A DNA stretch of 64,000 nt, from positions 99,954 to 163,953 of the forward strand of contig JANRLI010000005.1 of NCBI GenBank assembly GCA_033762625.1, given 5' to 3'. Below, in pieces: positions 4,847-48,479 of this stretch. The position numbers and the translations under genes are program-made. The notes beneath the pieces are model-generated. The model saw only the letters and a program-made list of their open reading frames with translations. It searched no databases and had not been told where the DNA came from. The first letter of the stretch is position 1; each line of letters starts with the position of its first letter. This DNA is from Alphaproteobacteria bacterium (GTDB taxonomy: Bacteria; Pseudomonadota; Alphaproteobacteria; UBA9219; RGZA01).

Positions 4847-6457
4847 TTAGTATTGCAAATACTTCTTCATTAAATTCAAAAACTTTAACTGGTTTTCTTT
4901 GGCTTTTTCTGTATCGCCTTGCCGTTGATAGAGTTGGCCCATGACTTTATAAGCCTGAAAGAAGTCCGGATTAATTTCTACTGCGCGCTGTAAATGATGC
5001 ATGGCTTGCGGCGCATTAGTGGGCGATATCTTCAGCAGCACTTGCGCGAGATTATAGCGTGTTTGCGCATAGTTATCTTCAATTTCAATTGCGCGGGTGT
5101 AATGCGTGATTGCCGAAGCAGTATCACCTGCATCATCATAAGCCATGGCGATATTGTTATGAACGCGGGCTTTTTCCCCGCCGTTTTTTAGAATGTTCGA
5201 ATAAAACGAAATTGGTGTCGCCCATACCGCGTTTTGCTGATAGGTCAAAATGCCCAACGTGCCAGCGATGATGATGACGACACATAACCCAAGCGTTTGC
5301 GCTGTGTCGGATTTAAGCTGGTTTATCGAATGCACCCCATGTTCGCATAGCGCAAGAAACAGCCCGATGCTTGGCAGATACATCCAATGTTCCAGAAAAA
5401 ATGCGTTTACCGGAATCAATAATCCGGTGTGGAGCAGATGCGCAAAACCAAACCACAAAAGGCCCCATGTGATGCAAACCCATGCCGCGCTGGTCTTCTT
5501 GCGAATGAAGGAATAAAGCACGATAGACGTGCATAATATGAATATTGCAATTCCGATAATAACCTTGATGGATGATGCATCTGCATAAACAGGGAATGCG
5601 CGATCAAAATGCAAATTGGCAGGATAGAAAATAAGCGCAAGATAATCGGGCAGGGTTGCAGCAAAGGTGAAAAACCGGACAAAAAAATGTTCGGTATAGA
5701 TATTTTGTACCTTATAAAAATCGAGACCATTTAGTTTCAAAATCGTCATACGCAGAATAACGTAACCGAGCGCAATGACCCATAACGGCCATGTCTTTAG
5801 ATAAGGGGCGATGGTATGGCGATGTACATCGTTGCGGTAAATACACGCCAACACGAGCAATGGAAAAGCCAGCGCTGTTTCTTTTGATAGCAGCGCAAGG
5901 ATAAATGCGCAGCAGGCAAGCAGCATCGTGCGCCCCGTGATGCCTTGCGTAATAATGGCAAGTCCGCACAGGCAAAAGAAGCTATACAACGTGTCGGCAG
6001 TCGCGCTCATATAGGTGACCGCTTCGGTATGCATGGGATGCAATGCCCATAGCGCGGCGGCGATAAATACGGGCAGGCGCGCCATGCCAAGGCGTAAGCC
6101 CAACACCACCACAAGGCAGGTGTTAAATAGATGCAGAATTAAATTCGGGATATGAAATGCGGGTGCGGATAGCCCCGCCAATTGATGGGTGATGAGATAA
6201 ATCACCGTTTGCAAGGGACGGTAGAATGAATCAATCCCCGCCGCGCCGGATGTGGAGGATGATGTGAATATAAATGGCAAAAACCCGAAGCTGGTCAGGT
6301 AGCGGTTTTTCTGGATAAGAAATTCATCATCGAGCAGGAACGCGTTGTGGAAGATATTGCTATAGGCGGCTAGCACACAGAGCAGCAGCGCGCCAACGCC
6401 TATCGTAATAATGTGCTGCTGGGGGAAAGGCTTTTGCATGCCCCCACTAAGCGGCAC
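4847..6457 (-). CDS. Polytopic membrane glycosyltransferase of GT-C fold (PMT/TMTC-like, DUF1736-type) fused to C-terminal TPR repeats
   Basis: The N-terminal half is multi-TM and carries the characteristic loop motifs LLDDEFLI, YRPLQ, HIPNLILHLFN and HPMHTEAVTY. The C-terminal ~140 aa form TPR repeats (AMAYDDAGDTASAITHYTRAIEI..., AYKVMGQLYQRQGDTEKA). Confidence 0.6.
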   Translation of the reverse strand: MPLSGGMQKPFPQQHIITIGVGALLLCVLAAYSNIFHNAFLLDDEFLIQKNRYLTSFGFLPFIFTSSSTSGAAGIDSFYRPLQTVIYLITHQLAGLSAPAFHIPNLILHLFNTCLVVVLGLRLGMARLPVFIAAALWALHPMHTEAVTYMSATADTLYSFFCLCGLAIITQGITGRTMLLACCAFILALLSKETALAFPLLVLACIYRNDVHRHTIAPYLKTWPLWVIALGYVILRMTILKLNGLDFYKVQNIYTEHFFVRFFTFAATLPDYLALIFYPANLHFDRAFPVYADASSIKVIIGIAIFILCTSIVLYSFIRKKTSAAWVCITWGLLWFGFAHLLHTGLLIPVNAFFLEHWMYLPSIGLFLALCEHGVHSINQLKSDTAQTLGLCVVIIIAGTLGILTYQQNAVWATPISFYSNILKNGGEKARVHNNIAMAYDDAGDTASAITHYTRAIEIEDNYAQTRYNLAQVLLKISPTNAPQAMHHLQRAVEINPDFFQAYKVMGQLYQRQGDTEKAKENQLKFLNLMKKYLQY

Positions 6458-6490
6458 AAATCATTAAAAAAGCCTATATGCATAAAAAAA

Positions 6491-6522
6491 CGCCCCGATT
6501 TTCATAATTAAAAACCGGGGCG
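6491..6522 (-). terminator. Rho-independent terminator downstream of the 6550-7035 gene
   Basis: Hairpin cgccccg(a)tttt...aaaaccggggcg with a 7-bp GC stem. On the minus strand it is followed by a U-run (plus-strand A7 at 6484-6490). Confidence 0.55.
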
Positions 6523-6549
6523 CGGGATAGATAACGCATGTTCAGCGGA

Positions 6550-7035
6550 TTAATCGCTGCTTACGACTTTCCATGAACCATCGGGTTGACGGCAAGCCGT
6601 GCCATAGCTTTGTTCGACATGACCACCCACACGAACATCGCGTTGGTATTCGCGGCAGTAGGGATCATTGGAAATCACGCGGCCCTTTTTTGCGACGACA
6701 GGTGCTTCCTCGTAGTAAACAGGTTCTGGCGGATTAACATACACAACGCGTGTAGATGAGTAGTATGGCGCTGGGTAGTAGTCCGGTTCATAAAAGCGTG
6801 GGCCAACCCAAGGATTGAAATAGGAGCGTTCATAATAGCCACGGTGCCAACCCCCATGATTCCAGCCTTTGTTCCAACCATGATGACCGCCGCGATACCC
6901 CCCGTGATGACCGCGATAATAACCATCACCATCGCCAACCGTGAAACCGAAGCTTACGCTATCAGCAAGCGCAGGAAGTGCGCCGAGGCTGAGAACAGTA
7001 GCGGTAACAAGGGTGAGAATTTTCTTCTTTAACAT
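6550..7035 (-). CDS. Secreted His/Gly/Tyr-rich protein with a 17-kDa-surface-antigen-like two-Cys C-terminal domain
   Basis: Signal peptide MLKKKILTLVTATVLSLGALPALA. Repeat region GHHGGYRGGHHGWNKGWNHGGWHRGYY. C-terminal CREYQRDVRVGGHVEQSYGTACRQPDGSWKVV. Confidence 0.5.
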   Translation of the reverse strand: MLKKKILTLVTATVLSLGALPALADSVSFGFTVGDGDGYYRGHHGGYRGGHHGWNKGWNHGGWHRGYYERSYFNPWVGPRFYEPDYYPAPYYSSTRVVYVNPPEPVYYEEAPVVAKKGRVISNDPYCREYQRDVRVGGHVEQSYGTACRQPDGSWKVVSSD

Positions 7036-7541: not shown

Positions 7542-7573
7542 ATGATGAGCTCCTTAGTTAAGCGAATGGATGA

Positions 7574-25724: not shown

Positions 25725-25733
25725 GCGTGTGCT

Positions 25734-26477: not shown

Positions 26478-26632
26478 GTCTATTTATAATTCAGACTGCG
26501 GCGTTAGCTTTTTGGCGTTTTTTCCGCTTCCGGTGCTCACGTACTTAAACGTACGCTGCGCTCCGGTTCTCAAAAACCACCAAAAATCCTTAGCCGCAGC
26601 AAAATTCTAAACAGACTCATCTGAGAACCACC

Positions 26633-27733: not shown

Positions 27734-27751
27734 CTTCCGATAGGACCCCAT

Positions 27752-31601: not shown

Positions 31602-31619
31602 ACACTTTAGGAAAAATAA

Positions 31620-35146: not shown

Positions 35147-36214
35147 TTGCACTTACCGCCATATCCTTTAAAAAGAGGGGCTATTCCTCATTTAAATGGC
35201 TTAGATTTCTGTATGACACGCATCTCCGTCTGCACGCCCTGTTTCAATGAACGCGAAAGCATCCGCCGCTGCTATGAGACAGTGCGCAAGGTTTTCGAAG
35301 AAACCATGCCGGATGTCGAGCGCGAACATATTTTTGCGGATAATGGTTCAACCGATGGCACCGTAGAAATTCTGCGCGAAATTGCCGCCAATGATCCATG
35401 CGTCAAAGTCATTCTGAATATGCGCAATTTCGGAATCATTCGCAGTTCCATGAACGGTATTCTTAGCTCGTCAGGCGATGCCGTATTCATGTTCATGCCA
35501 GCCGATTTGCAGGACCCGCCAGAACTGATGCCGCAATTTGTGAAATTGTGGCGTGAAGGGTATGAAGTCGTATATGGCACCCGCGAAATTCGTGAAGAGC
35601 ACCCGCTTATGCGTAGCGTTCGCGAGATGTATTACAAAGTTTTGCGTGCATTTTCCAGTGTCCAGCTGCCAATGAATATCAGTGATTACCAATTGCTGGA
35701 TAAGCGTGTGATTGATGCGATGCGCCAGTTTGATGATGCGTATCCGTTCGTGCGTGCCATGCCGTTTCAATGCACATCGCGTACTATTGCTGTGCCCTAT
35801 ACATGGCGCGCCCGCGCAGCCGGTGTTTCGAAAAACCGCCTTTTTAATCTGATTGATCAAGGGCTAAACGGTTTTATTGCAACAACCCATGTTCCTATTC
35901 GCTTGGCGTTACTGGCAGGCTTTCTAATTTCCGCATGCAGCATTTTGTATGCGGTAGTGAATGTGGTTGGCAGTTTGTTTGCGCCAGAACCGATGGTGGG
36001 CGCGGGTATTCGTACGTTGATTGCAGGTATGTTTTTGTTCAATGGTATAATTTTATTCTTCTTGGGTGTTTTGGGCGAATATGTACTTTCCATTCACCAG
36101 CAAGTGCGCCGCCCGCCGCGCGTCGTTGAACGGGAGCGGATCAATTTCGATACCCCGCCGCGCACCCAGCAAAGTAGTGAAGAAACCGAACAGAAACAAC
36201 GGCGCGCCAGCTAA
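35147..36214 (+). CDS. GT2 polyprenyl-phosphate glycosyltransferase (GtrB/ArnC/DPM1-like) with a C-terminal 2-TM anchor
   Basis: ISVCTPCFNERESI, FADNGSTDGT and DLQDPP GT2 motifs. C-terminal TM pair ...AGMFLFNGIILFFLGVLGEY. An alternative start at 35213 is possible. Confidence 0.8.
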   Translation: MHLPPYPLKRGAIPHLNGLDFCMTRISVCTPCFNERESIRRCYETVRKVFEETMPDVEREHIFADNGSTDGTVEILREIAANDPCVKVILNMRNFGIIRSSMNGILSSSGDAVFMFMPADLQDPPELMPQFVKLWREGYEVVYGTREIREEHPLMRSVREMYYKVLRAFSSVQLPMNISDYQLLDKRVIDAMRQFDDAYPFVRAMPFQCTSRTIAVPYTWRARAAGVSKNRLFNLIDQGLNGFIATTHVPIRLALLAGFLISACSILYAVVNVVGSLFAPEPMVGAGIRTLIAGMFLFNGIILFFLGVLGEYVLSIHQQVRRPPRVVERERINFDTPPRTQQSSEETEQKQRRAS

Positions 36215-36215
36215 G

Positions 36216-36983
36216 ATGGTTATTGTTATTACAGGTGCATCGTCAGGGATTGGTGAAGCGTTATGCTTGCACTATGCCATGCGCGGGAACACCATTTGCC
36301 TGTTGGCACAGAATCTGACGGCGCTGGAAAACGTGGCTGAACGCTGCCGTGCGCAAGGTGCAACGGCGTTTGTATATGGCGCCGATGTCAAGGATGCTCC
36401 AGCGATGCAACGCGCAAGCGAAGCGATAATTCATGAGGCGGGCGTGCCGGATATTGTCATTGCCAATGCTGGTATCCGTATTGAAGACCCCGCAAGCTAT
36501 GTGGGTTCAAATGCTGCCTATGAAATCATGATGGTGAATTATATTGGTGTCATTAATACGTTTGCTACCTTTATTGAGCCTATGAAAAAAAATGGAAAAG
36601 GGCATCTCTGCGCGATTTCAAGCATTGCCGCATACCGCGCTACACCCAACTCGGGCATTTATTCTGCATCAAAAGCGGCGGTAAATTTATGGACCGAAGC
36701 ACTGCGTCTTAAACTTGTGCCACACCATATTCATGTGACCACTGCGGCATCCGGATTTGTGCGCACGGCGATGACCGCTGATTTATCGTTTCATATGCCA
36801 GGCATTTTATCCGCAGCGCAGGCCGCCGCTATTATTTCCAAGGCGATTGCCGATAAAAAAAGCCGCATCATGTTTCCGTGGCAGTCGCGTTTCATCTGGA
36901 GCATGTTTTGCGCGATGCCGGGATGGCTTTACGATGGCGTTATTTTATGTGCCAAAAAATACTGGCCGTCCCGCAACGATTAG
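36216..36983 (+). CDS. Short-chain dehydrogenase/reductase
   Basis: MVIVITGASSGIGEAL with YSASKAAV. The start is 2 nt after the upstream stop. The longer ORF from 36066 overlaps the GT2 gene and is unlikely. Confidence 0.7.
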   Translation: MVIVITGASSGIGEALCLHYAMRGNTICLLAQNLTALENVAERCRAQGATAFVYGADVKDAPAMQRASEAIIHEAGVPDIVIANAGIRIEDPASYVGSNAAYEIMMVNYIGVINTFATFIEPMKKNGKGHLCAISSIAAYRATPNSGIYSASKAAVNLWTEALRLKLVPHHIHVTTAASGFVRTAMTADLSFHMPGILSAAQAAAIISKAIADKKSRIMFPWQSRFIWSMFCAMPGWLYDGVILCAKKYWPSRND

Positions 36984-37005
36984 AAATGCGTAAGGGCTGC
37001 ACGTT

Positions 37006-37881
37006 TTGCATGCAGTGCCGTTAAAAAATCCCGTTTTCTATTATTTTTCCGCTGTTTTGCTTGTAGTTTTGCTAGGCAATTCATACAAAGAAAAATATAC
37101 TTACCGGCTTCTTGGCATCACCGTGATGCTTTTTCCCCTAATGGATGCGCGCTGCTTTATGAAATTCGAAGATTATTCCCATACGTTTTTGCATTTTCAT
37201 ACAACAGAAGTGCCAGCGATATTAAAAAAATACCTTTCGGGCAATGTTGGGCTCGTGGATTTGGGGGCGGGCGATGGCAACTTGCTTATATCCCTAAAAA
37301 CCGCAGGCCTGCTGGATCAGTTTTCCAAAGTTGTTGCCGTTGAACTATCCCAAGAACGCTGCGAGCGGCTTCGCACCTATACCAATTTCAAAGTCATCTG
37401 CGGGGATGCCACCAATGTCAGCGAGCTGGAACCAGAAAGCTTTGATTTTGTTTTATGCACGCAGGTGATCGAACACGTGGATGAAGCCAAACTGCTTGCG
37501 CAAATTTCAAAGCTATTAAAGCCGAATGGTACCGCCTATATCGCATCGCTGATTAAAGAAAAGCATGGCTGGTGGTATTATCGTACGGCGGATGGCAAAT
37601 GGGCATTAGACCCCACCCATTTGCGCGAATATGAATCAGTCGAGCAATATGAAGCAGTGATTAAAAAGGGCGGATTTACCATTGTAGAAACAGTAACCAG
37701 CCGTTTGGAACTTTCAATCATTGAGTTTGTGCTGCGTAGAATTGTCGTTCCGCTGTTCAAGCCGGAGCATATTCACAGCTTCTTTATTCAATATCCATTT
37801 GCAGACTGGATACGCAGGCATTTTAACGTGCGCCCGCCCGGTTACCATATTGTTGAAACCATCGCGAAAAAAGCACAATGA
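37006..37881 (+). CDS. Class I SAM methyltransferase
   Basis: VDLGAGDGNLLISL motif I. The true start may be a downstream internal Met. Confidence 0.6.
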   Translation: MHAVPLKNPVFYYFSAVLLVVLLGNSYKEKYTYRLLGITVMLFPLMDARCFMKFEDYSHTFLHFHTTEVPAILKKYLSGNVGLVDLGAGDGNLLISLKTAGLLDQFSKVVAVELSQERCERLRTYTNFKVICGDATNVSELEPESFDFVLCTQVIEHVDEAKLLAQISKLLKPNGTAYIASLIKEKHGWWYYRTADGKWALDPTHLREYESVEQYEAVIKKGGFTIVETVTSRLELSIIEFVLRRIVVPLFKPEHIHSFFIQYPFADWIRRHFNVRPPGYHIVETIAKKAQ

Positions 37882-38300
37882 ATTTGATAGCATTAAAAGA
37901 AAAAGTGGTAATGCGGTATGCGATGATCGGTGTTGTTAACACTGTGTTCGGGTTCAGTTTTTTCCCTTTTTTCTATTGGCTGTTCCATTCCATTCTGGAA
38001 ATCAATATTCTGGTTACATTAAGCCATTTGTGTTGCGCGTTATTTGCATTTTTTTCTCATAAATATCTGACCTTTCGTTCTGACGAAAAGGTGCATCTGG
38101 AAGGCGGAAAGTTTATCGTAACGCAGGCAATTACATGGACCATCAATATTGCTATGTTGAATGTGGCTATGGCGTTACTTGATTGGAGCCCGTTTGTCCT
38201 GCAAATGCTGATTTCGGTTTTTTTGACGATTAGTAATTATTTTGTTTACAAGTACTTTGTTTTTCTGTCGCCAAAAGGCAAGCCGCGCGAACAGCATTAA
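37878..38300 (+). CDS. gtrA: GtrA-family small membrane protein (polyprenyl-P-sugar flippase family)
   Basis: 140 aa, 4 TM. MRYAMIGVVNTVFGFSFF ... YKYFVF GtrA signature. Confidence 0.75.
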   Translation: MNLIALKEKVVMRYAMIGVVNTVFGFSFFPFFYWLFHSILEINILVTLSHLCCALFAFFSHKYLTFRSDEKVHLEGGKFIVTQAITWTINIAMLNVAMALLDWSPFVLQMLISVFLTISNYFVYKYFVFLSPKGKPREQH

Positions 38301-38330
38301 TCTATTCCACCCCAACCTGAGAATTTCTGA

Positions 38331-40688
38331 ATGTTATCTAGGTTATTTCAAACACTGGCAACCACAGCGGTTTCCAAACTAAGCAAAGCTTATCTGTGGG
38401 TTGGCAGTGCATTCAAGAAACATACCCGATTGTCTGCGGATGATTTAAGCATTGTCGGCGCTTATTGCGCAGCCATGGGCTTGGCAAGCTGGTCTATTTT
38501 CCGTTGGCTGTCGTTTGTTGCAGCGGATATTTCCTTTGAGTGGAATAGCGGTGTTGGCCCCACGCAGATCATCTTTAATACCACATTAATTACTTATGCA
38601 ATTTTGGTGTGTTCGGTAATCGGTCTCGTTGCGTTGCTATGGGTATGCGAAGCGTTACCTTTCATGCGCCGTTTACTGGTACGGCTTGCCAACGCCTGCT
38701 CGGTGCTGCTGTTGCTGTGTTCATGTGCGGCGGTATTTATTACATCTTTGGTAATCGCGCGGATTTATTTTATTATTACATTCCTGGTTTTTGTGCCGCA
38801 TGCGGTGTGCTTCTTTAAAAGTCAGACTGTGATTATGATGAAAAATCATTCCAGTGGCTTTATTCGATATGCCATGCCGTTAGTGTTATTTGTGCCGCTC
38901 GCTCTGGCATTCGCACTTGCCATCAAAGCGTGGTTTCCGGTGCAAATTCCGAATGATTATATTGAAGTAGCCGATACGGTGGTGTTGCATGGAAAGGATA
39001 ATGTGCAAACAAAGACCATTAGCCGCTCCGATGCTGTGGATTGCATGGAGGCGGCCAAGTACCCAGATAGCAATTCAAAATCGAATGGTTCACAACTAAA
39101 GCCGCAGATAAAAAAATCTGCCAAGGATGATGCCAGCATTCCCAGATGCCGTTTTGATATATCGTCAACCCAGTTACAGAAGCTATATGAACCTGTTCTT
39201 AAAACGGGTACATGGCAAGCGCAGGCAGGGCGTTTATTATATCATCACTCGTACGTATTTGTTCCTGCTATTCATGCGCTTCACTATGGGTTGGCGTCAC
39301 CCATTCCTTATCTTTACGGTCTTGGCAACACGTTGTTTCATGCCGCATTGCTGCATCTGACATCGCCTACCCTGACCAGCTATTTTGACACTTACCCGAT
39401 TGCGCAATTGACGGGCATTTTGTGTATTATGTTATTGATTTCGTATATCTCGCGTAACAGCTATGCGGCCGTGGCCGGGTTAAGCGTTGTACTCGTTGCC
39501 TTGTTTCAGTTGAAGTTTGAATTTGTGTTATTGCCACCTGGCTTTAGCCCGCTGCGCTATGCGGGGTTGGCACTGCAAGTTGCATCGATTTTTCTTTTAT
39601 TCCGAGGGACCTCGCTTTTACGCCCGTTTGGCATGATGCTGGCGCTTGCAGCCTCATTTTTCTGGAATGCAGAATATGCGATGATTGGCGCTGTTGGGCA
39701 GGGCATGGCATTGGTATCGCCGCAATACCGAATATCCGCATGGGGGCGTTTTGGCTTTCTGGGCTTGGCAGCATTGATCGCTGTTGGCGGCATGGTTGGA
39801 AATGGCTGGTATTCTACAGGTTACTTGCAGGGAATGGCGTTGGGGCTGTTTGGCCTTTTCCCGATGTTACCGACGAACTATTTCCTGGTGCTTTGCGCGC
39901 TGGTTGCTACGGGAATTGGGTTGCTTATATATGCGACAAAGCAATTTACGGCTAGTGAAGCGATGGCCCGCCTATGCGTGTTGCCTATTATGGCGTTATT
40001 GGTTGTTAAGTTCCTTTTCTATGCATTGGCCGTACATCTTTTCTATAGCATGATGTTTATAGTGCCGCTCGTACTGACATATATTGATTGGTCGAACCGT
40101 CGTCATTCATCGGTGACTGTTAACCGCCGCTGGATGGAGGCATCATTTGCGGCTAGTTTCGCGTTGCTGGCCTTTATTAACTCCATTACCTATTATTCAA
40201 GCGCACTTAAGTTCCGTGAAATCATGTCGGATCCATTTGGCACTTATCAGTGGTCAGGAATTGGCGAGCACTTTAACACCAATATTCCCCCTGAACCGAT
40301 TGTTAGCCGCGTTGAAGCGGTGCGCTCACAATTGCGTGCGGGGGATAGAGTGTTGTTCCTGTCGCCGTTTGATCATCTGCTATCCTTTTATACCAATCCC
40401 CAGCATTACTGCGGACATTTTGAAATCGTGTTAAACCCAATAACAACAAAAATGGTGCGGTCACTTGTGGACTGTGCGCGTGATTCCACGCAGCTGTTAA
40501 TAGTATATGACGAGGCGGAAAGATACGCATGTCCTGATGGATGGCGCGCGCAGTATTATGATAGGCCTTCATGCGAGTATAAACGAAATCTCAAGCAAAA
40601 CGCGCTGACCATATTACGCGCGCTGGGTGATGATATTGTTCCGGTCACAAAAATCGGGCCGCTTACTTTTTACCGAAAAAACCATTAA
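38331..40688 (+). CDS. Large polytopic membrane protein (>=12 TM) with a C-terminal soluble domain; candidate GT-C glycosyltransferase
   Basis: 785 aa. Hydrophobic throughout with a ~170 aa hydrophilic C-terminus. Sits immediately after gtrA. Confidence 0.45.
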   Translation: MLSRLFQTLATTAVSKLSKAYLWVGSAFKKHTRLSADDLSIVGAYCAAMGLASWSIFRWLSFVAADISFEWNSGVGPTQIIFNTTLITYAILVCSVIGLVALLWVCEALPFMRRLLVRLANACSVLLLLCSCAAVFITSLVIARIYFIITFLVFVPHAVCFFKSQTVIMMKNHSSGFIRYAMPLVLFVPLALAFALAIKAWFPVQIPNDYIEVADTVVLHGKDNVQTKTISRSDAVDCMEAAKYPDSNSKSNGSQLKPQIKKSAKDDASIPRCRFDISSTQLQKLYEPVLKTGTWQAQAGRLLYHHSYVFVPAIHALHYGLASPIPYLYGLGNTLFHAALLHLTSPTLTSYFDTYPIAQLTGILCIMLLISYISRNSYAAVAGLSVVLVALFQLKFEFVLLPPGFSPLRYAGLALQVASIFLLFRGTSLLRPFGMMLALAASFFWNAEYAMIGAVGQGMALVSPQYRISAWGRFGFLGLAALIAVGGMVGNGWYSTGYLQGMALGLFGLFPMLPTNYFLVLCALVATGIGLLIYATKQFTASEAMARLCVLPIMALLVVKFLFYALAVHLFYSMMFIVPLVLTYIDWSNRRHSSVTVNRRWMEASFAASFALLAFINSITYYSSALKFREIMSDPFGTYQWSGIGEHFNTNIPPEPIVSRVEAVRSQLRAGDRVLFLSPFDHLLSFYTNPQHYCGHFEIVLNPITTKMVRSLVDCARDSTQLLIVYDEAERYACPDGWRAQYYDRPSCEYKRNLKQNALTILRALGDDIVPVTKIGPLTFYRKNH

Positions 40689-40706
40689 TCATATGGAAAG
40701 CATGCG

Positions 40707-42320
40707 ATGTCAGGCATAACGACGCTCCCTCGCAAATGGATATGGTTCTGGATTACAGCACTGCTTGTTGCGGGTTCGGTAGCGGTTTGGCATCACATGC
40801 CCATCATGCCGGATGAAATTGCCATACGCGTTCAAGCGGGCAGATTTATTCAGGATCAGGGAATGGCAACCGGGCTTTTCGCATTATGTGCCAACCGGTT
40901 GCAAGCCGTACCGGGGATTTTTATTCCTTCAGCATGGCTATTATCATTGGGCGATCTCGCTTTCTCGCCGATTGATTTGCGCGTTATATCCATTAGCGCC
41001 TTGGTGTTATGCGCTGTTATTGCAATGCGGGGTGCTTTTAAAAATGCCAATCATGCAGCAATGCTTTGGATGGTTGCTGCATTTTTGGGTGTATCCGGTT
41101 CAACGCTGGTATTTTTCCGCTTCGAAGTTTTTTTGATCATCCATCTTTGCTTGTGTATGACAGCGTTACAGGTGCTCAAAAAAAATCAACCTGGAATCTT
41201 GCATCTGGTGTTAACAGGCGCGCTGCTTTTTAGCCTGCTCACCATGGGGTATGTTCACCCGCAAGCATTTCTGTTTATCCCTTTAACTGCTTATTTGTGC
41301 TACAGGCTAATATGTGGAACGCGTATTGACGTGGTTAAACTGTTTATTGGTCTTGCGCTGTTTGCAGGTATCGCGGTGACCATTCATTTCTTTTTTCAAT
41401 TGTCATGCGTTGGACATAAAGAAATCGAAATCTTTTGGGGTGAAATGATTTTTGATATGTCGCGATTGGTATCGGCTGATTTTTTCAATATTATAAAAGA
41501 AAAATTCAAGCTCTTTGCATTTTCATTTACATACAACGATTCCTATACCATCGGCTATTTGCCAGGCATTACCAAGGATATGTTTGCAGCGCGAGGCATT
41601 CTAAATGCGGCTATTGTTATTGGTTTGTTGATGGTGATGGTAACAGGCGTAATGCTGGGATGCGCCTATGTATATCGCTTTGTTGCAATATACATCCTGC
41701 GCCGTCAACAACCGGCAGGGTTTGATTTGGATGCCGCGGTAGGATTCAGTTTTATCTTTTTTCCTTCGCTGTTTTATTTACTTTACGATGCGCATCTTTA
41801 TTTTTACCGGTCTTTTATCATAAATTTTTTATTCGTTATTGCTGTGGTCATCGGCCTTTCCACGATTGATAACAAACTACTCAAGACAATAACTGCCTAC
41901 GCGGGAGGGGTTTTATGTCTTGTTTGTGCATTTTCCATTTACACAAATTTTGCCTATTTTTATAAACCCATACAAACCTATGAGGGCCCTTCTGCATCGC
42001 TAGATCGCGATTGGGCACACGCACCTGAACGGCTAAACCGTTTTGCCCAGAGCTGCGGGATTGATTTGACCAAAGGCGGCGGGATTATTGATGATGTTAC
42101 CTATGAGGGGGTGAAGCAGTACCCGCGTGTCTATCAAATTACCTACCTTGGGCTACAAATGGGGCTTGCTAAGATAAAGCCTGAAACGGTAATAACCACT
42201 TTAAAGCCTAATTATGTATTGGCGCGCTGCAGCGAAATGGAAGCGATAGGGCTTGGTTGGCCGGCTGATAAGCAAGAAGGCGATCTTTGCTGTAAACGCT
42301 ATAGCCCCGCGTCAGAATAA
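40707..42320 (+). CDS. Polytopic membrane protein, candidate GT-C glycosyltransferase (GtrC-like)
   Basis: 537 aa, multi-TM. Acidic first-loop motif MPDEIAIR typical of GT-C catalytic DE/DD loops. Confidence 0.45.
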   Translation: MSGITTLPRKWIWFWITALLVAGSVAVWHHMPIMPDEIAIRVQAGRFIQDQGMATGLFALCANRLQAVPGIFIPSAWLLSLGDLAFSPIDLRVISISALVLCAVIAMRGAFKNANHAAMLWMVAAFLGVSGSTLVFFRFEVFLIIHLCLCMTALQVLKKNQPGILHLVLTGALLFSLLTMGYVHPQAFLFIPLTAYLCYRLICGTRIDVVKLFIGLALFAGIAVTIHFFFQLSCVGHKEIEIFWGEMIFDMSRLVSADFFNIIKEKFKLFAFSFTYNDSYTIGYLPGITKDMFAARGILNAAIVIGLLMVMVTGVMLGCAYVYRFVAIYILRRQQPAGFDLDAAVGFSFIFFPSLFYLLYDAHLYFYRSFIINFLFVIAVVIGLSTIDNKLLKTITAYAGGVLCLVCAFSIYTNFAYFYKPIQTYEGPSASLDRDWAHAPERLNRFAQSCGIDLTKGGGIIDDVTYEGVKQYPRVYQITYLGLQMGLAKIKPETVITTLKPNYVLARCSEMEAIGLGWPADKQEGDLCCKRYSPASE

Positions 42321-42323
42321 ACC

Positions 42324-43022
42324 ATGACCAAAAAAGTCGCCATCGTTCAGTCAAATTACATCCCCTGGAAGGGATTTTTTGACATGATTGCCGCAGTAGA
42401 TGAATTCATTTTATATGATGATATGCAATTCACGCGGCGGGACTGGCGCAACCGTAACCAGATTAAAACCCCGCAGGGGCTTTCATGGCTATCGGTACCT
42501 GTCCAGTCCAAAGGAAAGTACGACCAAAAAATCAGGGATACGGAAATCGATGGGACGGATTGGGCTGCATCGCATTGGAAGTCCATATCGCTTAACTATG
42601 CGCGCGCACCGCATTTCAAGGAAATCGCCGAATGGTTGCAACCCATTTACCAGCAGCAGACATTCACCAATCTGTCCGTTTTGAACCGCACCTTGATTGA
42701 AGCGGTGTGTAACTATCTTAGTATTAAAACTGTCATTAAAAATTCATGGGATTATAAATTAATAGACGGAAAAACCGAACGCCTTGCCGATTTATGCAAA
42801 CAGGCGGGTGGCAGTGAATATATCTCTGGCCCTGCGGCCAAAGACTATATCGATGATACGGTTTTCGCCCATTACGCCATTAAACTGACGTGGTTTGACT
42901 ACCAAGGGTACAGCGAATATCCTCAGCTTTGGGGTGATTTTGCGCATAATGTGAGCATTGTCGATCTGCTGTTTAATTGTGGCAAAGATGCCCCGCGCTA
43001 TATGAGGTTTGTCAAATCATGA
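42324..43022 (+). CDS. WbqC-like family protein
   Basis: [45 protein letters not shown] matches the WbqC family N-terminus. Confidence 0.75.
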
Positions 43023-43968
43023 AGCTATCCCCATGAAACTATCGATTGTTGCCACGCTTTATAAATCGAGCGCGTATATTGATGCGTTCCACCAGCGGTG
43101 CAGCGCGGTTGCCACGGCCTATGCAGGCGATGACTACGAAATCGTACTAGTCAATGATGGCTCGCCTGATGATAGCTTGCAGCGCGCAATTGCCCTTTCG
43201 CAAAAGGATGCGCATGTGGTGGTGGTTGATTTGTCGCGTAATTTTGGTCACCACAAGGCAATGATGACTGGCCTTGCGCAGGCAAAAGGTGAGCGCATTT
43301 TTTTAATCGACAGCGATTTGGAAGAAGAACCTGAATGGTTGTCGTTATTCCAAGCGCAAATGGATGCTGAAGATTGCGACGTTGTGTTTGGCGTTCAGGA
43401 AAAACGCAAAGGCAACTGGCTTGAGCAATGTTCAGGCCCTGTCTATTACAGCATCTTCCGCTTGTTCACTGGTATCAATCAGCCAGATAATATCGTAACC
43501 GCACGCCTGATGACGCGCCGTTATGTCGATGCGCTGCTGCTGCATAAGGAGCGCGAGCTCAATATCGGCGGTTTGTGGATTATCACCGGCTTTAAGCAGA
43601 CAACACAGGTTGTCAAAAAGCACGAAACCAGCCCCACTACGTATTCGATTGCGCATAAGGTGGGCCATTTGGTCAATGCGGTAACATCGTTCAGCAGCAT
43701 GCCGTTGGTATTCACCTTTTATGCCGGGCTTTTCATTTCATTTGGCGCGCTGGTTTATATCGCGCATCTTGTCATTCATTATCTGTTTGGATCCGCGCCG
43801 CCCGATGGCTATACATCCATCATTGCATCGATCTGGCTGTTTTCTGGGCTGATTATTTTCTTTCTTGGGGTGCAGGGAATTTATATCTCCAAACTGTTTA
43901 TGGAAGTGAAGCAGCGCCCCTATACCATCATCCGCCGCATCTATGGCCGCAACAACGGAGGCGGCTAA
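43009..43968 (+). CDS. GT2 polyprenyl-phosphate glycosyltransferase (GtrB/ArnC-like) with a C-terminal TM anchor
   Basis: [23 protein letters not shown] and DSDLEE motifs. C-terminal TM pair. The likely real start is at 43033 (MKLSIV). Confidence 0.8.
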
Positions 43969-44597
43969 TGTCCAGCGCTTCCAAGCTTGCGGATGTTGCA
44001 ACCTATTACACAGAAAAACTGACCGCGCACGGGCAAACTGCGCGCGGCGTTGATTGGAATGGTGAAGAAAGCCAGAACCTGCGCTTCACGCAGCTGTGCA
44101 AAATTATTGATCCGGAATTGAAGGATTTTTCAATCAATGATCTGGGGTGCGGCTATGCCGCGCTTGTAGATTTTTTGGTACAGCGCCATCCGCATTTCTC
44201 GTATAACGGGTTTGACGTATCGCAAGCGATGCTGGATGCCGCGATGGAACGCCATAAGGGTAAGCCAACTATTCGTTTTGGGTTGGCAGATAAGCCGGAC
44301 GCTGTAGCCGATTATGGTATTGCCAGCGGCATTTTTAATGTGCGGTTGAAACAGACTGATGCCGAGTGGCTTCAGCATTTTGAAGCGACGCTGGATGAAT
44401 TGAACCGTACCAGCCGCCGCGGGTTTGCATTCAATGCGCTCACATCCTATTCCGATGCCGATAAAATGCGCGAAAACCTTTATTACGCATCCCCTGCGAC
44501 AATTTTTGACATATGCAAGAAGCGCTATTCCCGTAATGTTGCGCTTTTGCATGATTATGATCTTTACGAATTCACGATTTTGGTGAGGAAAGCATGA
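43968..44597 (+). CDS. Class I SAM methyltransferase
   Basis: INDLGCGYAALVDFL motif I. TAATG-coupled. Confidence 0.55.
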   Translation: MSSASKLADVATYYTEKLTAHGQTARGVDWNGEESQNLRFTQLCKIIDPELKDFSINDLGCGYAALVDFLVQRHPHFSYNGFDVSQAMLDAAMERHKGKPTIRFGLADKPDAVADYGIASGIFNVRLKQTDAEWLQHFEATLDELNRTSRRGFAFNALTSYSDADKMRENLYYASPATIFDICKKRYSRNVALLHDYDLYEFTILVRKA

Positions 44598-46504
44598 CAA
44601 TTGAAGCAACGCTTCTGTTTTTAGTGACCCTGGTTGCATGTTACATCGCTGTTCGCAAAAGCGTTGCCTTGCAAGGATTGTCCGTTCGGTTTGCCGATGT
44701 TCTTCAGCGCCGCGCTTTTCCCGCGCCATCGGATTTTGAGCATATCAAATTTGCGTTTCTGCGCATCATTTTTGGCGGATTATTGTTGAACCGCGCAGTT
44801 CAGATATTCATTTATATGTTGCCGGAAGAATATGGAACCGCGGCTGGCCTGTGCGCAATCGCTACTATTGTTTCAGCGGTATTTGTTATGGTTGGCCTCT
44901 TCACGCAGTGGTCGTTGGTTTTTTCGATGGGTTTCCTGTGGCAAACCAGCGAAGGAATTTTAAAAAACTCTACCCTTGGCAATGATATTGCTGCGGCGCT
45001 GAGCCTTTTATTATTGCTTACCAGCGCAGGAAAGTTTTTGTCGGTAGATGGTTGGATACTGAGCCGATTGAAAAACAAATCATGGTGCAATTTGCTGCTT
45101 TATGATCATGACATTCCCAGCAAACGTACCATCGCCCTTGCCAAATTCGTATCGTTGTTTGCTTATTTTTTGGTATGTGTATTTTCCATCTGCGTGCATT
45201 TGCATGAATCCGCATGGATGACAGGGGTGGCTGGCCCTTATCTGCTCAGCAATAATTTTATGACTGCGCCGCATGAATTCTTCACACAATTATTTGTGCA
45301 ATATCCGATTGCAGTCATTATCGCCAAATTCTCCCTTTGGGTGATGATGGTGTGGTATCCCACCATTATTCCGTTTGTGTTAATGGGCGGGATATTCCGG
45401 TGGTATATTGTGTATTGGGGCTTGGCGTTTTTGATCTTGTCGTCATTCGTATTGCAACTTGGCTCCCTTGCCGAATTTGAATTTGTGTTCTGGGCGGGGA
45501 TTTTCTGGGCCAATACTGCCCTTGATAGTCGAAAAAAACTATCTGTCTATTATGACGACACCTGCAACTTATGTGACCGCACGGTGCTGGTCATTACTGT
45601 GCTGGATATTTTCAATCGTGTGGCACTGCGTCCGTTATCAAAACATACTGAAGAATTGCGCAGTTATGGCATAAGCCATGAAGCCGCGATGCAAAATCTT
45701 TATGGTATTCAGGAAGAAAACGGCACAGCCAAACCCGGCACAGTCACTTCGGGTACGGTAAAATTCGGATATGATTTTTATATCATGCTGGCAAAGAACC
45801 TGTTCCTGTTGTGGCCGGTTTTGCCATTCTTGTATTTAGGTAAAATTCTGCTGATTGGCCCTGCCATTTACAGCCTTGTTGCCCAAAAACGCCATGCCAT
45901 GTTTGGGGTATGCAAACTTCCCACCAAGAAAGTAGAACGCAGCGCGCCCGTTACTTCAGATAAATTGCCGATTGCGGGTAACGCCGTTGTGTTGCATGTG
46001 ATGTTGATGGCTTTGTGCTATATCGTAGCCATTCCGTATCCTTATCTTAATATTCAGGGCTTTGATAATATTGGCGCGAAAGCGGCAGCATTTTACGGGA
46101 TTGCGCCGATTAATGTCTTTAACCGCGAAGATCTGCGTATGGCCGAAAACTGGTTCACGCTGCGTGATATTAAAAATGATAGCATGGTGCCGTTATTTGC
46201 CAAGGATGGATCACGCTTGCGCATGCACCGTTCTGATCGTGTTTATTTTGGCCATACGTTACTTTTCCGCAGATCGGTCATCGATAAAGAAGGATGTTTC
46301 TTTAATGAATGGCAGGCGCAGATGGAATACCTATCGAAGGTTTATCTGCATAGTATCAATGCACCTGCTGGTACATATCCATTTGAATATGTACAGTATA
46401 AACAACCCTTACCCAACGATGCCAAGGTGAACATAGGCGAATACGTATTGGAGCCCGTTACCACCCCATGCACAAAGACTTATGATATAGATTACAAACC
46501 ATGA
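44594..46504 (+). CDS. Fusion membrane protein: N-terminal HTTM domain plus DCC-family (DUF393) thiol-disulfide oxidoreductase-like domain, then a C-terminal soluble domain
   Basis: HTTM signature FAFLRIIFGGLLLNRAVQ with ~8 TM. DUF393 motif VYYDDTCNLCDRTVLVITVLDIFNRVALRPL. ATGA-coupled on both sides. Confidence 0.6.
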   Translation: MTIEATLLFLVTLVACYIAVRKSVALQGLSVRFADVLQRRAFPAPSDFEHIKFAFLRIIFGGLLLNRAVQIFIYMLPEEYGTAAGLCAIATIVSAVFVMVGLFTQWSLVFSMGFLWQTSEGILKNSTLGNDIAAALSLLLLLTSAGKFLSVDGWILSRLKNKSWCNLLLYDHDIPSKRTIALAKFVSLFAYFLVCVFSICVHLHESAWMTGVAGPYLLSNNFMTAPHEFFTQLFVQYPIAVIIAKFSLWVMMVWYPTIIPFVLMGGIFRWYIVYWGLAFLILSSFVLQLGSLAEFEFVFWAGIFWANTALDSRKKLSVYYDDTCNLCDRTVLVITVLDIFNRVALRPLSKHTEELRSYGISHEAAMQNLYGIQEENGTAKPGTVTSGTVKFGYDFYIMLAKNLFLLWPVLPFLYLGKILLIGPAIYSLVAQKRHAMFGVCKLPTKKVERSAPVTSDKLPIAGNAVVLHVMLMALCYIVAIPYPYLNIQGFDNIGAKAAAFYGIAPINVFNREDLRMAENWFTLRDIKNDSMVPLFAKDGSRLRMHRSDRVYFGHTLLFRRSVIDKEGCFFNEWQAQMEYLSKVYLHSINAPAGTYPFEYVQYKQPLPNDAKVNIGEYVLEPVTTPCTKTYDIDYKP

Positions 46505-47166
46505 AACAAAAGCTGGTCATCTTTGGAGCAGGAGAGATTGCGCAATTGGCGCATTATTACTTCACGCATGATAGCGATTATGAAGTCGTGGCGTTTACGG
46601 CTGATAGCGCCTTTATCAAAGAGCCCGTATTCTGCGGATTACCCGTGGTGGCGTTTGAAGAAGTCGCACAGATTTACCCGCCATCCACCCATGATTTTTT
46701 TGTGGCGCTCAGCTATTCCAAATTGAATTTGCTTCGTAAGGACAAATACCTTGCCGCAAAGGCAAAGGGCTATCGGCTCGCCAGCTATATCAGCCCCAAG
46801 GCGAGTGTGTTGAATGATGGCCGTATTGGGGAAAATTGCTTTGTTTTTGAGGACAACACCATCCAGCCTTTTGCGCATATCGGCAATAACGTGACGTTAT
46901 GGAGTGGTAATCATATTGGCCATCATTCAACGATTAAAGACCATAGTTTCATTTCTTCGCATGTGGTGGTGTCGGGCGGTGTAGTGATTGGCGAGCAATG
47001 CTTTATCGGCGTCAACGCCACGCTTCGTGACCACATCACGATTGGTGATCGCTGCGTTATCGGGGCTGGCGCTATTCTTCTTTCCAATGCGGAAGCCGAA
47101 GGCGTTTATATGGGCAGTGAAACGGAACGCTCCAAAGTGCCCAGTACACGCTTGAAAGCCATATAG
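46501..47166 (+). CDS. NeuD/PglD-family sugar N-acetyltransferase (hexapeptide repeat)
   Basis: N-terminus KLVIFGAGEIAQLAHYYFTHDSDYEVVAFTAD is NeuD-like. C-terminal left-handed beta-helix hexapeptide repeats. Confidence 0.8.
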   Translation: MKQKLVIFGAGEIAQLAHYYFTHDSDYEVVAFTADSAFIKEPVFCGLPVVAFEEVAQIYPPSTHDFFVALSYSKLNLLRKDKYLAAKAKGYRLASYISPKASVLNDGRIGENCFVFEDNTIQPFAHIGNNVTLWSGNHIGHHSTIKDHSFISSHVVVSGGVVIGEQCFIGVNATLRDHITIGDRCVIGAGAILLSNAEAEGVYMGSETERSKVPSTRLKAI

Positions 47167-48078
47167 ATGGGTGCGTGGAAAAAACTTGGAAAGCTGTATT
47201 CCTTGCCGGAAGGCGGGGTGCACCCCAAACTTCTTTCCCATACCGCCAACCCGTTGCCTGTATTGCTGGATGGCGATGTCTATCGCATTTTTTACAGTAG
47301 CCGCGATAAGGATAACCGTTCATCTGTTGGCGCGGTAGATATGGATATTGTGAAGCGCAGCGTGGTGCGTGAGCACACCGAGCCGCTTTTCGAAGTTGGC
47401 GAAAAGGGCAGTTTCTATGAAGCAGGCGTCAGCATCGGCAATTGTTATGAAGCAGACGGAAAAACCTACATGCTGTTTATGGGCTGGCAAAATCCGGATG
47501 GCGGGCATTGGCGCGGCGATATAGGACGTTTGCGTGTTATGCCAGATTTGTCATTACAGCTTGATAGTGCGCAGCCGTTTATGGGCGTTGATGCGATTGA
47601 TCCCATCAGCCTTTCATATCCTTGGGTGATTAAAAACGCGGATGGCAGTTATTCCATGTGGTACGGTTCCACGCAAAGCTGGGATGCAGGAAATGGTGAA
47701 ATGCTGCATGTAATTAATGGCGCGTCATCACATGATGGCCATAACTGGAAACGTGAAGGATTGGCGGTTCCATACCAGTTGGGTGTGGCGCAGGCATTTT
47801 CGCGGCCCACGGTCGCGCGGGATGAACATGGCTATAAAATGTGGTTTTCATACCGCAGCGGTGCAGGCGAGACGTACCGTATTGGGTGCGCGTCGAGCAA
47901 GGATACTAAGGAATGGAAATTGGCGTTAGACCAATCGGGGATTGATGTTTCAACCGATGGCTGGGATAGCGAGATGATTGAATATCCCTTTGTTTTTGAC
48001 CACAAGGGCCAGCGTTATATGCTGTATAACGGTAACGGATACGGGAAAACCGGTTTTGGTCTGGCAGTGCAGGTATGA
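47167..48078 (+). CDS. Five-bladed beta-propeller protein, GH130/DUF377-like (putative glycosidase or glycoside phosphorylase), tentative
   Basis: N-terminal NP...DG.YRIFYS motif and repeated W/Y-rich blades. Starts immediately after the NeuD stop. Confidence 0.4.
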   Translation: MGAWKKLGKLYSLPEGGVHPKLLSHTANPLPVLLDGDVYRIFYSSRDKDNRSSVGAVDMDIVKRSVVREHTEPLFEVGEKGSFYEAGVSIGNCYEADGKTYMLFMGWQNPDGGHWRGDIGRLRVMPDLSLQLDSAQPFMGVDAIDPISLSYPWVIKNADGSYSMWYGSTQSWDAGNGEMLHVINGASSHDGHNWKREGLAVPYQLGVAQAFSRPTVARDEHGYKMWFSYRSGAGETYRIGCASSKDTKEWKLALDQSGIDVSTDGWDSEMIEYPFVFDHKGQRYMLYNGNGYGKTGFGLAVQV

Positions 48079-48479
48079 ACGAAGCATTGAATATAAAAGC
48101 AACGGCAATACAGTTCGTGCGTTATGCCATGGTGGGGCTTGTTTCCAATGTAATGGGTTATCTGATCTATTTGCTGGTAACCTATCTGGGTATGGCTCCA
48201 AAAATTGCAATGACTTTTTTATATGGAGTTGGTGTGACCATCAGCTTCTTCGGCAACCGCTATTTGGTGTTTGCGGATGGCGGCAGATTGAAAACAACGG
48301 GCATTAAATTCATAGCGGCTTATCTCATCGGGTATTTTTTGAACCTTTCGCTGTTAATTGTGTTTGTTGACCAGATGGGGTATCCGCATCAAATCGTGCA
48401 GGCAATTGCAATTTGCGTTGTTGCGGTATTTCTGTTCTGTGCGCTTAAAGTTTTTGTCTTTAAAAAGGATGCGCCATGA
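48075..48479 (+). CDS. gtrA: GtrA-family small membrane protein (second copy)
   Basis: 134 aa, 4 TM. VRYAMVGLVSNVMGYLIYLLV ... NRYLVF. Confidence 0.7.
   Translation: MNEALNIKATAIQFVRYAMVGLVSNVMGYLIYLLVTYLGMAPKIAMTFLYGVGVTISFFGNRYLVFADGGRLKTTGIKFIAAYLIGYFLNLSLLIVFVDQMGYPHQIVQAIAICVVAVFLFCALKVFVFKKDAP

Follow-up and report, generated by a model that had tools for sequence, protein, structure and literature searches.

The locus considered here raises the question of whether a protein that databases name 'tetratricopeptide repeat protein' is a glycosyltransferase and, if so, which sugar donor and which acceptor it would use. Within the 64-kb window, by which we mean the whole stretch of DNA analysed, the initial annotation had drawn attention to an open reading frame at 4847..6457 on the minus strand, proposing that it encodes a TMTC/PMT-like GT-C enzyme with a TPR tail, fed by polyprenyl-phosphate-sugar modules in the same window. 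The frame is real, and the ORF listing gives it 536 aa when counted from a GTG at 6457. A 100% identical NCBI protein from an Alphaproteobacteria MAG begins 6 codons downstream of the GTG, at the ATG at 6439 (MQKPF, 530 aa), and a G-rich, SD-like stretch precedes this ATG. We place the gene at 4847..6439, with its TAA stop at 4847-4849, and use the 530-aa numbering except where stated; all features of the gene given below lie on the minus strand.

Profile searches identified the tail of the protein. In Pfam and NCBIfam only TPR families matched, namely TPR_1 (E=1.3e-13, aa ~427-522), TPR_17 and TPR_11 in Pfam, and no Pfam GT-C model was matched; a result of TPR alone is insufficient for classifying the membrane domain. 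DUF1736 (PF08409) and PMT (PF02366) gave no match at E<=1 in the target or in 24 relatives, the scan of family members being run on a TPR-free alignment. PMT_2 (PF13231) was matched by 9 of the 24 relatives, with a best E of 2.3e-7, and by the target not at all at E<=1. Precomputed Pfam assignments for 120 homologues likewise lacked DUF1736, and searches of PDB sequences with phmmer and the family profile returned TPR proteins or one spurious phycobilisome-linker match, and nothing else. The initial annotation had named the lack of a significant PMT or DUF1736 hit as grounds for abandoning its assignment and, taken literally, that is what the Pfam search returned for this protein; of the models it had named for a search, TPR matched the target and DUF1736 and PMT_2 did not.

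The membrane domain is, nonetheless, homologous over its whole length to that of TMTC1-4, the ER protein O-mannosyltransferases for cadherins (CAZy GT105), with HMM E-values down to 2.5e-36 and an hhalign value of 99.1%. The two share the DD, YRP, [FY]HxxNxxLH, HPxHTEAV and KE[T/Q] motifs, the acidic residues of motifs M3 and M5, and the PV..E..Y.PS and [QR]NxxW motifs. The target is genuine but unremarkable, one of a very large bacterial family that is kin to the animal TMTC protein O-mannosyltransferases. The number of cluster representatives among bacterial relatives exceeds 100,000 at E<=1e-3 and is ~12,800 at E<=1e-30, so the protein is a new member of a superfamily that is already known.

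All of the motifs quoted in the initial annotation are present (DDEF 43-46, RPLQ 80-83, H102..N105..LH109 and HPMHTEAV 140-147, in the 536-aa numbering) and, judged by sequence, these loop motifs are far from chance. An alignment of 116 homologues, 37-82% identical to the window protein, contains 21 invariant columns, among them D37, D38, R74, P75, Q77, H96, H103, P135, E139, K186, E187, H351 and Y354. When read against TMTC motifs M1-M7 (DD; SHKSYRP; RxD; KE[T/Q]xxT; DW; PxxP; ERxxY; Eisenhaber et al. 2021), M1 is complete, as is the KE[T/Q] core of M4, whose last T is not conserved. M1 corresponds to D37-D38 (6326..6331), which falls on the DD of genuine TMTCs in the alignment and sits between TM1 and TM2 in the first extracytoplasmic loop, predicted to be periplasmic; following the role assigned to this pair in TMTC (PMC7801869), it is predicted to be the catalytic, acceptor-binding acidic pair. 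M4 corresponds to K186-E187-T188 (5876..5884), where K186 and E187 are invariant and in TMTC register. By the roles modelled for TMTC in the same study (PMC7801869), K186 is predicted to contact the phosphate and E187 to be a metal ligand.

The remaining motifs are kept in part. Only YRP is retained from M2, in Y73-R74-P75-L-Q77 (6209..6223), which is in register with SHKSYRP and in which R74, P75 and Q77 are invariant; the SHKS of TMTC gives way to (D)SF in the target. H134-PMHTEAV-141 (6017..6040) is near-verbatim TMTC HPIHTEAV, and just after it T147-A-D149 (5993-6001) preserves the acidic residue of M3 alone, with R replaced by T. The periplasmic loop EL4, R255...T258...P264.Y266...P273..L276-H277-x-D279-R280 (5600..5677), aligns with real TMTCs as the homologue of their DUF1736 loop, shorter and diverged; R255, Y266 and P273 are invariant among the 116 homologues, and the acidic residue of M5 is kept with W changed to R (DW to [D/E]R). 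M6 and M7 align with P343-VNAFFL-E350-H351-W-M-Y354-LPS (5369..5413; PV....ERxxY.PS in TMTC), in which P, E and Y are retained and R becomes H (ER to EH). The residues given catalytic, metal or phosphate roles by TMTC modelling, namely D37/D38, K186/E187, E350, Y354 and an acidic residue at position 279, are invariant in the bacterial family.

Topology points the same way. The target has a polytopic membrane module with a conserved GT-C core fold (aa 1-405, 5225..6439), for which the helix map of the model gives 11 predicted TM helices. Lys and Arg account for 7/36 residues inside versus 8/154 outside, and the positive-inside rule predicts a cytoplasmic N-terminus and a TPR domain on the outer face, the arrangement described for TMTC1-4 (11 TM helices, N-terminus in, TPR out; PMC7801869). 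The C-terminal periplasmic TPR domain (aa 406-530, 4850..5224) comprises seven helices, or ~3 TPRs, and its matches among PDB entries include consensus TPR proteins and the TPRs of OGT. Its array is short: the tail spans ~112-125 aa, with a family-wide median of 112 aa, whereas TMTC arrays have ~8-12 TPRs and tails of up to 481 aa (TMTC3 set). A second difference is that every full-length real TMTC retrieved has DUF1736. In sum, the original proposal of a TMTC-like GT-C enzyme with TPRs is supported in part: TMTC homology and the TPR tail stand, and the assignment to the DUF1736/PMT models does not.

Other GT-C systems offer further comparisons. TfpW, the Pseudomonas aeruginosa pilin D-arabinofuranosyl O-glycosyltransferase, is a GT-C protein of the inner membrane whose N-terminus is cytoplasmic and whose C-terminal TPR domain is periplasmic. 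It has 11 predicted TM helices, needs a DDx motif in its first periplasmic loop for function, and transfers a lipid-linked sugar to pilin (bioRxiv 10.1101/2020.04.19.049825). The likeness to the target is drawn from this architecture; TfpW is larger (646 aa), and tfpW lies directly downstream of pilA, whereas the target has no pilin-like gene nearby. TMEM260 (GT117, DUF2723) is a protein-specific O-mannosyltransferase that combines an 11-TM GT-C domain with C-terminal TPR-like repeats and has distant bacterial homologues (PMC10214176). Membership in DUF2723 was considered and rejected, as the Pfam scan (E<=1) matched no family member to it and sequence similarity favours TMTC. In contrast to PMT/POMT (GT39) and actinobacterial Pmt, the target lacks PF02366, an MIR domain and, in the model, a beta-trefoil, and carries a TPR tail instead; HMMER comparison of its family with PDB PMT sequences found no similarity, and the likeness is that of the generic GT-C fold alone. 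ArnT (GT83) and the GtrC-type/GT136 three-component systems modify lipid A or polysaccharides from genes normally clustered with a GT2 and a flippase, a clustering that the target gene does not show.

From these comparisons we consider it fairly probable that the gene, standing alone, encodes an inner-membrane TMTC-like (CAZy GT105-like) GT-C enzyme that moves a sugar from undecaprenyl phosphate to a hydroxyl, most probably one on secreted or periplasmic proteins. Such an enzyme would bind, on the periplasmic side of the membrane surface, a monosaccharide carried by polyprenyl (undecaprenyl) phosphate, and would deliver it in an inverting reaction to a hydroxyl of an acceptor recruited by the TPR domain. 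Because the host is bacterial, the carrier must be of the undecaprenyl type, unlike the dolichol of TMTC, and the sugar may not be mannose, since TMTC positions modelled as mannose contacts differ systematically (SHKS to xSF; M3 R to T). By analogy, the acceptor would most probably be Ser/Thr of secreted or periplasmic proteins: TMTC1-4, TMEM260 and TfpW all have the GT-C plus TPR layout, and the TPRs of TMEM260 and TMTC have been proposed to recruit protein clients (PMC10214176). In several lineages secreted repeat proteins are encoded beside family genes; those at two of the related loci, L038 (Paraburkholderia ultramafica LMG 28614) and L033, are homologous and Thr/Ser-rich.

A lesser but serious possibility is that the same enzyme class, using the same donor, modifies an envelope lipid or glycan. 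Candidates would include lipid A or the LPS core, as for ArnT, a side chain of O-antigen or EPS, as for GtrC-type enzymes, and a peptidoglycan-linked polymer, with the TPR domain serving as a docking or glycan-binding module. However, glycan- or lipid-modifying GT-C enzymes usually have non-TPR periplasmic domains, and the closest relatives of known function (TMTC1-4) and the architectural analogues (TMEM260, TfpW) all modify proteins. Furthermore, the target gene lies outside both glycan clusters of the window, and neither the protein nor its family has sequence-level similarity to ArnT.

The donor is probably a polyprenyl-phosphate-linked sugar, a reading indirectly supported by the neighbours of related genes. 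Across lineages, polyprenyl-phosphate-sugar-synthase-like GT2 genes are the sole recurring glycan-related neighbour. They are enriched at positions adjacent to family genes (9/142 versus 5/692; odds ratio 9.3, p=9e-5, for loci that are not phylogenetically independent), and no GT2 lies nearby in 69 of 79 related loci. In some loci the stop codon of the GT2 overlaps the start of the family gene (ATGA), and at one locus the neighbour is a GT2-GtrA fusion. The best NCBIfam matches of the family-adjacent GT2 proteins are AglJ, Dol-P-hexose transferase and PpgS. For the target, whose gene stands alone, the lipid-linked donor would be supplied from another locus, the most plausible source being an AglJ/Dpm1-like polyprenyl-phosphate-hexose synthase such as those found beside family members in other lineages.

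The initial annotation had instead assigned donor synthesis and flipping to the window's own GtrB-like and GtrA proteins, with the target as the acceptor-side transferase. The genes themselves exist. Two GtrB-like GT2 genes with C-terminal TM helices (35147-36214 and 43009-43968) and two GtrA genes (37878-38300 and 48075-48479; PF04138, E=7e-13 and 2e-18) lie in a plus-strand glycan cluster at 35147..48479. Their presence in the same 64-kb window as the target would fit such a pathway, as would the enrichment of GT2 or GtrA-type genes beside family members elsewhere, and periplasmic Und-P-sugars diffuse in the membrane, so that gene linkage is not strictly needed. We nevertheless regard this coupling as unlikely, and it should not be assumed. 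The modules are 29-42 kb from the target, the nearest on the opposite strand, with housekeeping genes in between, and the cluster has its own GT-C gene at 40707-42320, encoding a 537-aa protein that is GT-C by fold and rarer than the target's family. Distance, strand, a terminator upstream of the target and the separate GT-C in the cluster all set the gene apart from the clustering of Gtr three-component systems. The window's GtrB-like GT2 proteins are also of a different subtype from the AglJ/Dol-P-hexose-synthase-like GT2 proteins adjacent to family genes, and a donor pathway elsewhere, not specifically the two Gtr modules, is the arrangement we prefer. Two membrane proteins of the cluster, of 537 aa and 785 aa, were considered as paralogues of the target and rejected (hhalign probability <1%).

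The immediate neighbours of the target encode an SLT transglycosylase, a small secreted protein and YdbL/YnbE/YdbH, among which there is no glycan link. This synteny is kept in close relatives only, and distant family members occur in unrelated contexts; YdbH/YnbE/YdbL and SLT were rejected as functional partners on these grounds. An intrinsic-terminator-like hairpin, with a 15-bp stem containing 7 GC pairs followed by T7 (6483..6523, minus strand), was found by scanning and reading the sequence, and it sits between the upstream gene for a 161-aa secreted protein and the target start codon. Scanning for promoters ahead of the target gave no sigma-70-like site. The 161-aa protein, which is Gly/His/Tyr-rich, was rejected as a dedicated acceptor: it adjoins the target in the two closest relatives only, a strong terminator separates the genes, and it is not Ser/Thr-rich.

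It is highly improbable that the target is, in keeping with its database name, a non-catalytic TPR scaffold with a membrane domain that anchors it or binds lipid-linked glycans without transfer. In favour of this reading, Pfam and NCBIfam report nothing but TPR families, and PIG-U offers a precedent for a non-enzymatic GT-C fold. Against it, the putative catalytic, metal and phosphate residues (D37, D38, K186, E187, E350, Y354 and others) show no variation in 116 sequences that are just 37-82% identical to the window protein, and the TMTC O-mannosyltransferases keep them too.

The label 'tetratricopeptide repeat protein' thus conceals an enzyme. Protein O-mannosylation by TMTC has been known only since 2017, when it was found in animals. 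A literature search found no experimental study of a member of the bacterial TMTC-like lineage, and prokaryotic relatives of TMTC have been mentioned only in passing (PMC7801869). To this the present analysis adds that these bacterial relatives make up a very large family, conserve catalytic motifs with TMTC and have a recurrent genomic link to polyprenyl-phosphate-hexose synthases. If a member glycosylates proteins, it would represent a new general route of O-glycosylation in Gram-negative bacteria and a tractable model for the TMTC mechanism and for substrate recognition by TPRs, and it would inform the origin of the eukaryotic pathway. We suggest, more tentatively, that the short-TPR bacterial TMTC-like family might constitute an unrecognised, widespread system of periplasmic protein O-glycosylation, in which Und-P-hexose donates a single sugar to secreted repeat or adhesin-like proteins, and that it could also be the prokaryotic lineage behind eukaryotic TMTC. 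The short-TPR family is common in uncultivated Alphaproteobacteria and Bdellovibrionota, often with several paralogues per genome. Within the same reading, eukaryotic TMTC, responsible for cadherin O-mannosylation, may have descended through the alphaproteobacterial ancestor of mitochondria.

The target gene lies on the minus strand, where its longest open reading frame (4847..6457) starts at a GTG and encodes 536 aa. The start used by NCBI, an ATG at 6439 with a G-rich, SD-like stretch just 5′ of it, gives a 530-aa product, whose residue numbers are used here. This form is 100% identical to an Alphaproteobacteria MAG protein which NCBI names 'tetratricopeptide repeat protein', and nothing more. 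The motifs DDEF, RPLQ, H..N..LH and HPMHTEAV reported in the initial annotation were all found, and their coordinates were verified. In alignments of 116–121 homologues with 37–82% identity to the target protein, D37, D38, G65, R74, P75, Q77, H96, H103, W131, P135, E139, K186, E187, R255, Y266, P273, W329, H351, Y354, N403 and W406 are invariant, and, judged by these columns, the motifs are not a chance occurrence. The C-terminal TPRs were likewise confirmed (TPR_1, E=1.3e-13, aa about 427–522). At E≤1, Pfam and NCBIfam searches with the protein returned TPR families only and no PMT, PMT_2 or DUF1736, an outcome which the initial annotation, read literally, had counted against its own proposal. 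PDB sequences searched with phmmer and with the family profile yielded TPR proteins or noise and nothing else. When TPR tails were removed from 24 relatives, PMT_2 was matched by 9 (best E=2.3e-7), and DUF1736 and PMT by 0; some relatives carry the JGI name 'protein O-mannosyl-transferase'.

Given an alignment of 116 sequences, AlphaFold2 modelled the target with very high confidence (pLDDT 96.4, pTM 0.94). The model has 11 long membrane helices, juxtamembrane helices in outer loops 1 and 4, and a final set of seven helices corresponding to about 3 TPRs. The fold is thereby established as GT-C, although on its own it does not point to PMT rather than to ArnT or the oligosaccharyltransferases, since their scores are nearly tied. 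With helix boundaries taken from the model, K+R density is 7/36 in predicted cytoplasmic loops versus 8/154 in predicted periplasmic loops. This bias supports a predicted topology in which the chain starts in the cytoplasm, crosses the membrane with 11 TM helices and exposes every conserved loop, together with the TPR domain, to the periplasm, which is the topology of TMTC and of TfpW, the Pseudomonas aeruginosa pilin D-Araf O-glycosyltransferase.

As a comparison sequence we used human TMTC3 up to residue 442. All 19 published TMTC3 positions fell on the correct residues in it, and a database query with this sequence retrieved named TMTC3 proteins with up to 96% identity, all containing PF08409. 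An alignment of the target's bacterial family without TPRs matched it in hhalign with 99.1% probability (E=8.9e-19, 386 aligned columns), and by this sequence comparison the family is specifically TMTC-like. Seven TMTC motifs, M1–M7, have been described with residue numbers (Eisenhaber et al. 2021, PMC7801869), and we aligned the bacterial family to real TMTCs. Common to both are the DD of M1, the loop motif [FY]HxxNxxLH, and HPIHTEAV, which reads HPxHTEAV in bacteria. Only YRP is shared in M2 (SHKSYRP in TMTC, (D)SFYRP in bacteria). The acidic residue is kept in M3, where RxD/E becomes TAD with replacement of R by T, and in M5, where DW becomes [D/E]R. M4, KE[T/Q]xxT in TMTC, is reduced to KET, its last T not being conserved; M6/M7 change from PV....ERxxY.PS to PV....EHWxY.PS, with R replaced by H; and the C-terminal RNxDW corresponds to QNxxW. 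The bacterial family does have a loop homologous to DUF1736, but it is shorter than in TMTC, and for this reason there is no Pfam DUF1736 match. The tail after the membrane domain is uniformly short in the bacterial branch (median 112 aa), and reaches up to 481 aa in the TMTC3 set. The original description of a TMTC-like GT-C enzyme with TPRs is thus correct by way of motifs rather than an HMM match, while DUF1736 membership fails.

When 1.84 billion sequences representing clusters at 50% identity were searched exhaustively with the HMM, the family had 103,378 matches at E≤1e-3, 74,637 at E≤1e-10 and 12,799 at E≤1e-30. The target protein belongs to a bacterial branch, very large and uncharacterised, of a kind of enzyme that is already known; recognising it usefully corrects the annotation and offers a reasonable lead for experiments, but comes as no surprise. 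TMTC constitutes GT105, and TMEM260 (GT117) is another GT-C + TPR O-mannosyltransferase (PMC10214176). Prokaryotic members appear in a passing remark ('homologues even among prokaryotes', PMC7801869), and TMTC-like genes of protists have been discussed (PMC8724618). A full-text literature search found no experimental study of any bacterial TMTC-like member. Among bacterial proteins studied by experiment, TfpW is the closest analogue in architecture; it combines 11 TM helices with a TPR domain in the periplasm, depends on a DDx motif that is essential, and O-glycosylates pilin with D-Araf (bioRxiv 10.1101/2020.04.19.049825).

An SLT lytic transglycosylase gene (2984-4831) converges on the target, and 15 bp separate the two stop codons. 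The next gene upstream on the minus strand (6550-7035) encodes 161 aa with a signal peptide; this product has no Pfam match, is rich in Gly, Tyr, His, Arg and Pro, and carries two Cys close to the C-terminus. At the end of this gene, a hairpin resembling a strong terminator (6483-6523, minus strand; 15-bp stem followed by T7) is located 25-45 nt 5′ of the target start codon. Further upstream on the same strand are DUF1318/YdbL (7224-7541), a small ORF whose counterpart in the relative with 81% identity is a PF13617 lipoprotein (YnbE-like), and a YdbH-like gene (7764-9191); the 7224-9191 segment is an AsmA-family ydbH-ynbE-ydbL-type envelope lipid-transport operon. None of the immediate neighbours (SLT, 161-aa protein, YdbL, YdbH-like) is a glycan gene. 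The order YdbH, YnbE, YdbL, small secreted protein, target, convergent SLT is kept in relatives with 81% and 73% identity. YdbH/YnbE/YdbL accompany the family gene in close relatives only, and the 161-aa protein gene in the two closest; more distant members occupy unrelated contexts.

The initial annotation proposed that the target is fed by the window's Gtr modules. These are present as described: two GT2 proteins whose C-terminal TM helices are GtrB-like (35147-36214 and 43009-43968) and two GtrA-family proteins (37878-38300, PF04138 E=7e-13; 48075-48479, PF04138 E=2e-18). They lie on the opposite strand, 29-42 kb away, beyond an RND efflux pair, a first sugar-gene group (14.5-18.6 kb), a biotin operon and a large sugar-nucleotide pathway. 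The 35-50 kb cluster also encodes three large polytopic membrane proteins of 785, 537 and 636 aa, none with a Pfam match. The Gtr cluster holds a complete local three-component set of GtrB-like GT2, GtrA and GT-C, so the main reason to recruit the distant target is gone; supply by these modules is unsupported, and less likely given the cluster's own GT-C enzyme. The 785-aa protein (38331-40688, plus strand) has a ~145-aa hydrophilic loop and a C-terminal soluble domain, and the 636-aa protein (44594-46504, plus strand) contains an internal DCC1-like thiol-disulfide oxidoreductase domain (aa 318-438). The 537-aa and 785-aa proteins were rejected as TMTC-like (hhalign probability below 1%). The sugar-nucleotide pathway (24873-35055, plus strand) has unusual members, comprising an HpcH-like aldolase, a short-chain dehydrogenase, a DHQ-synthase-like enzyme, a 590-aa TPP-dependent enzyme, a nucleotidyltransferase, a 4,6-dehydratase, a 456-aa DegT-family enzyme and epimerases, and may resemble dideoxy or branched-chain sugar pathways. 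Two soluble proteins on the minus strand lack Pfam matches: one of 237 aa (18611-19324), in the stretch that separates the first sugar-gene group from the biotin operon, and one of 287 aa (55880-56743).

Our comparative set comprised 88 family genes at 79 loci in GTDB species genomes, mostly Alphaproteobacteria/Rhodospirillales and Bdellovibrionota MAGs, with a few members from Patescibacteria, an Acidobacteriaceae MAG, archaeal-labelled bins and Paraburkholderia ultramafica. Unbiased clustering of the three genes on either side recovered housekeeping synteny inside sublineages (AspRS, PleD-like, PolA, PdxA). The sole glycan-related neighbour family recurring across lineages was GT2, at 10 loci and mostly at position ±1. 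A GT2 HMM matched 9/142 adjacent genes versus 5/692 genes ≥3 positions away (odds ratio 9.3, one-sided Fisher p=9e-5, with loci that are not independent). At least five distinct arrangements occur. In Bdellovibrionota, the TGA of an upstream ~244-aa GT2 gene, closest to AglJ/Dol-P-hexose synthase, overlaps the ATG of the family gene (ATGA; L051, L058, L083, around 4978 and 9971), which indicates translational coupling. The others are convergent genes of ~240 aa, versions of ~340-410 aa with C-terminal TM helices, a GT2-GtrA fusion, and a GT2 with a nearby GtrA gene (L087). These adjacent GT2s come closest to AglJ, Dol-P-hexose transferase and PpgS, all polyprenyl-phosphate sugar synthases, with every match under the equivalog cut-off; the window's two GT2s, unlike them, are most similar to PgfS and ArnC.

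Multiple copies of the family gene are common, as tandem or near-tandem paralogues (L021, L036, L037, L049, L059, L068, L069, L076, L087) or, in several MAGs, as two or three copies on different contigs. By analogy with TMTC1-4, this suggests that acceptor specificity may have diversified. The P. ultramafica gene is flanked (L038, 11780-18232) by transposase-like and group-II-intron reverse transcriptase-like genes, recognised from their sequences only, which suggests horizontal acquisition.

Besides its fold, the target's TMTC homology, invariant acidic and basic outer-loop residues and predicted periplasmic TPR domain are established. Residue roles can be proposed from TMTC and ArnT models (PMC7801869). 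D37 and D38 could act on the acceptor hydroxyl or on a metal, a divalent metal would be bound by E187 and by acidic residue 279, and K186, H351 and Y354 would contact the phosphate of the polyprenyl-P-sugar. The YRP and HPxHTEAV loops might form a dome over the sugar, and the TPR domain could recruit the acceptor. The sugar may differ from mannose, because TMTC positions modelled as mannose contacts are substituted. Analogy with TMTC, TMEM260 and TfpW leads us to favour a protein as the probable acceptor; a glycan or lipid in its place is the less likely alternative.

A further, anecdotal pointer to a protein acceptor is that secreted repeat proteins are found beside some family genes. In P. 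ultramafica, a secreted Thr/Ser/Gly-rich repeat protein with Laminin_G_3 (L038, 8131-9750, minus strand) is encoded 179 bp from the TMTC-like gene, and its homologue (E=4e-70) in an unrelated Alphaproteobacteria MAG (L033, 9548-11938, plus strand) lies 8 bp from one; both are candidate acceptor substrates. In MAGs of Rhodospirillaceae and Bdellovibrionales, Gly-rich (24% Gly), Cys-containing secreted proteins with no Pfam match are repeatedly encoded directly beside family genes (L048, L049, L052, L054; for example L052, 4500-5657, minus strand), and possibly represent either acceptors or mere lineage synteny. A beta-helix protein is found beside one further family copy.
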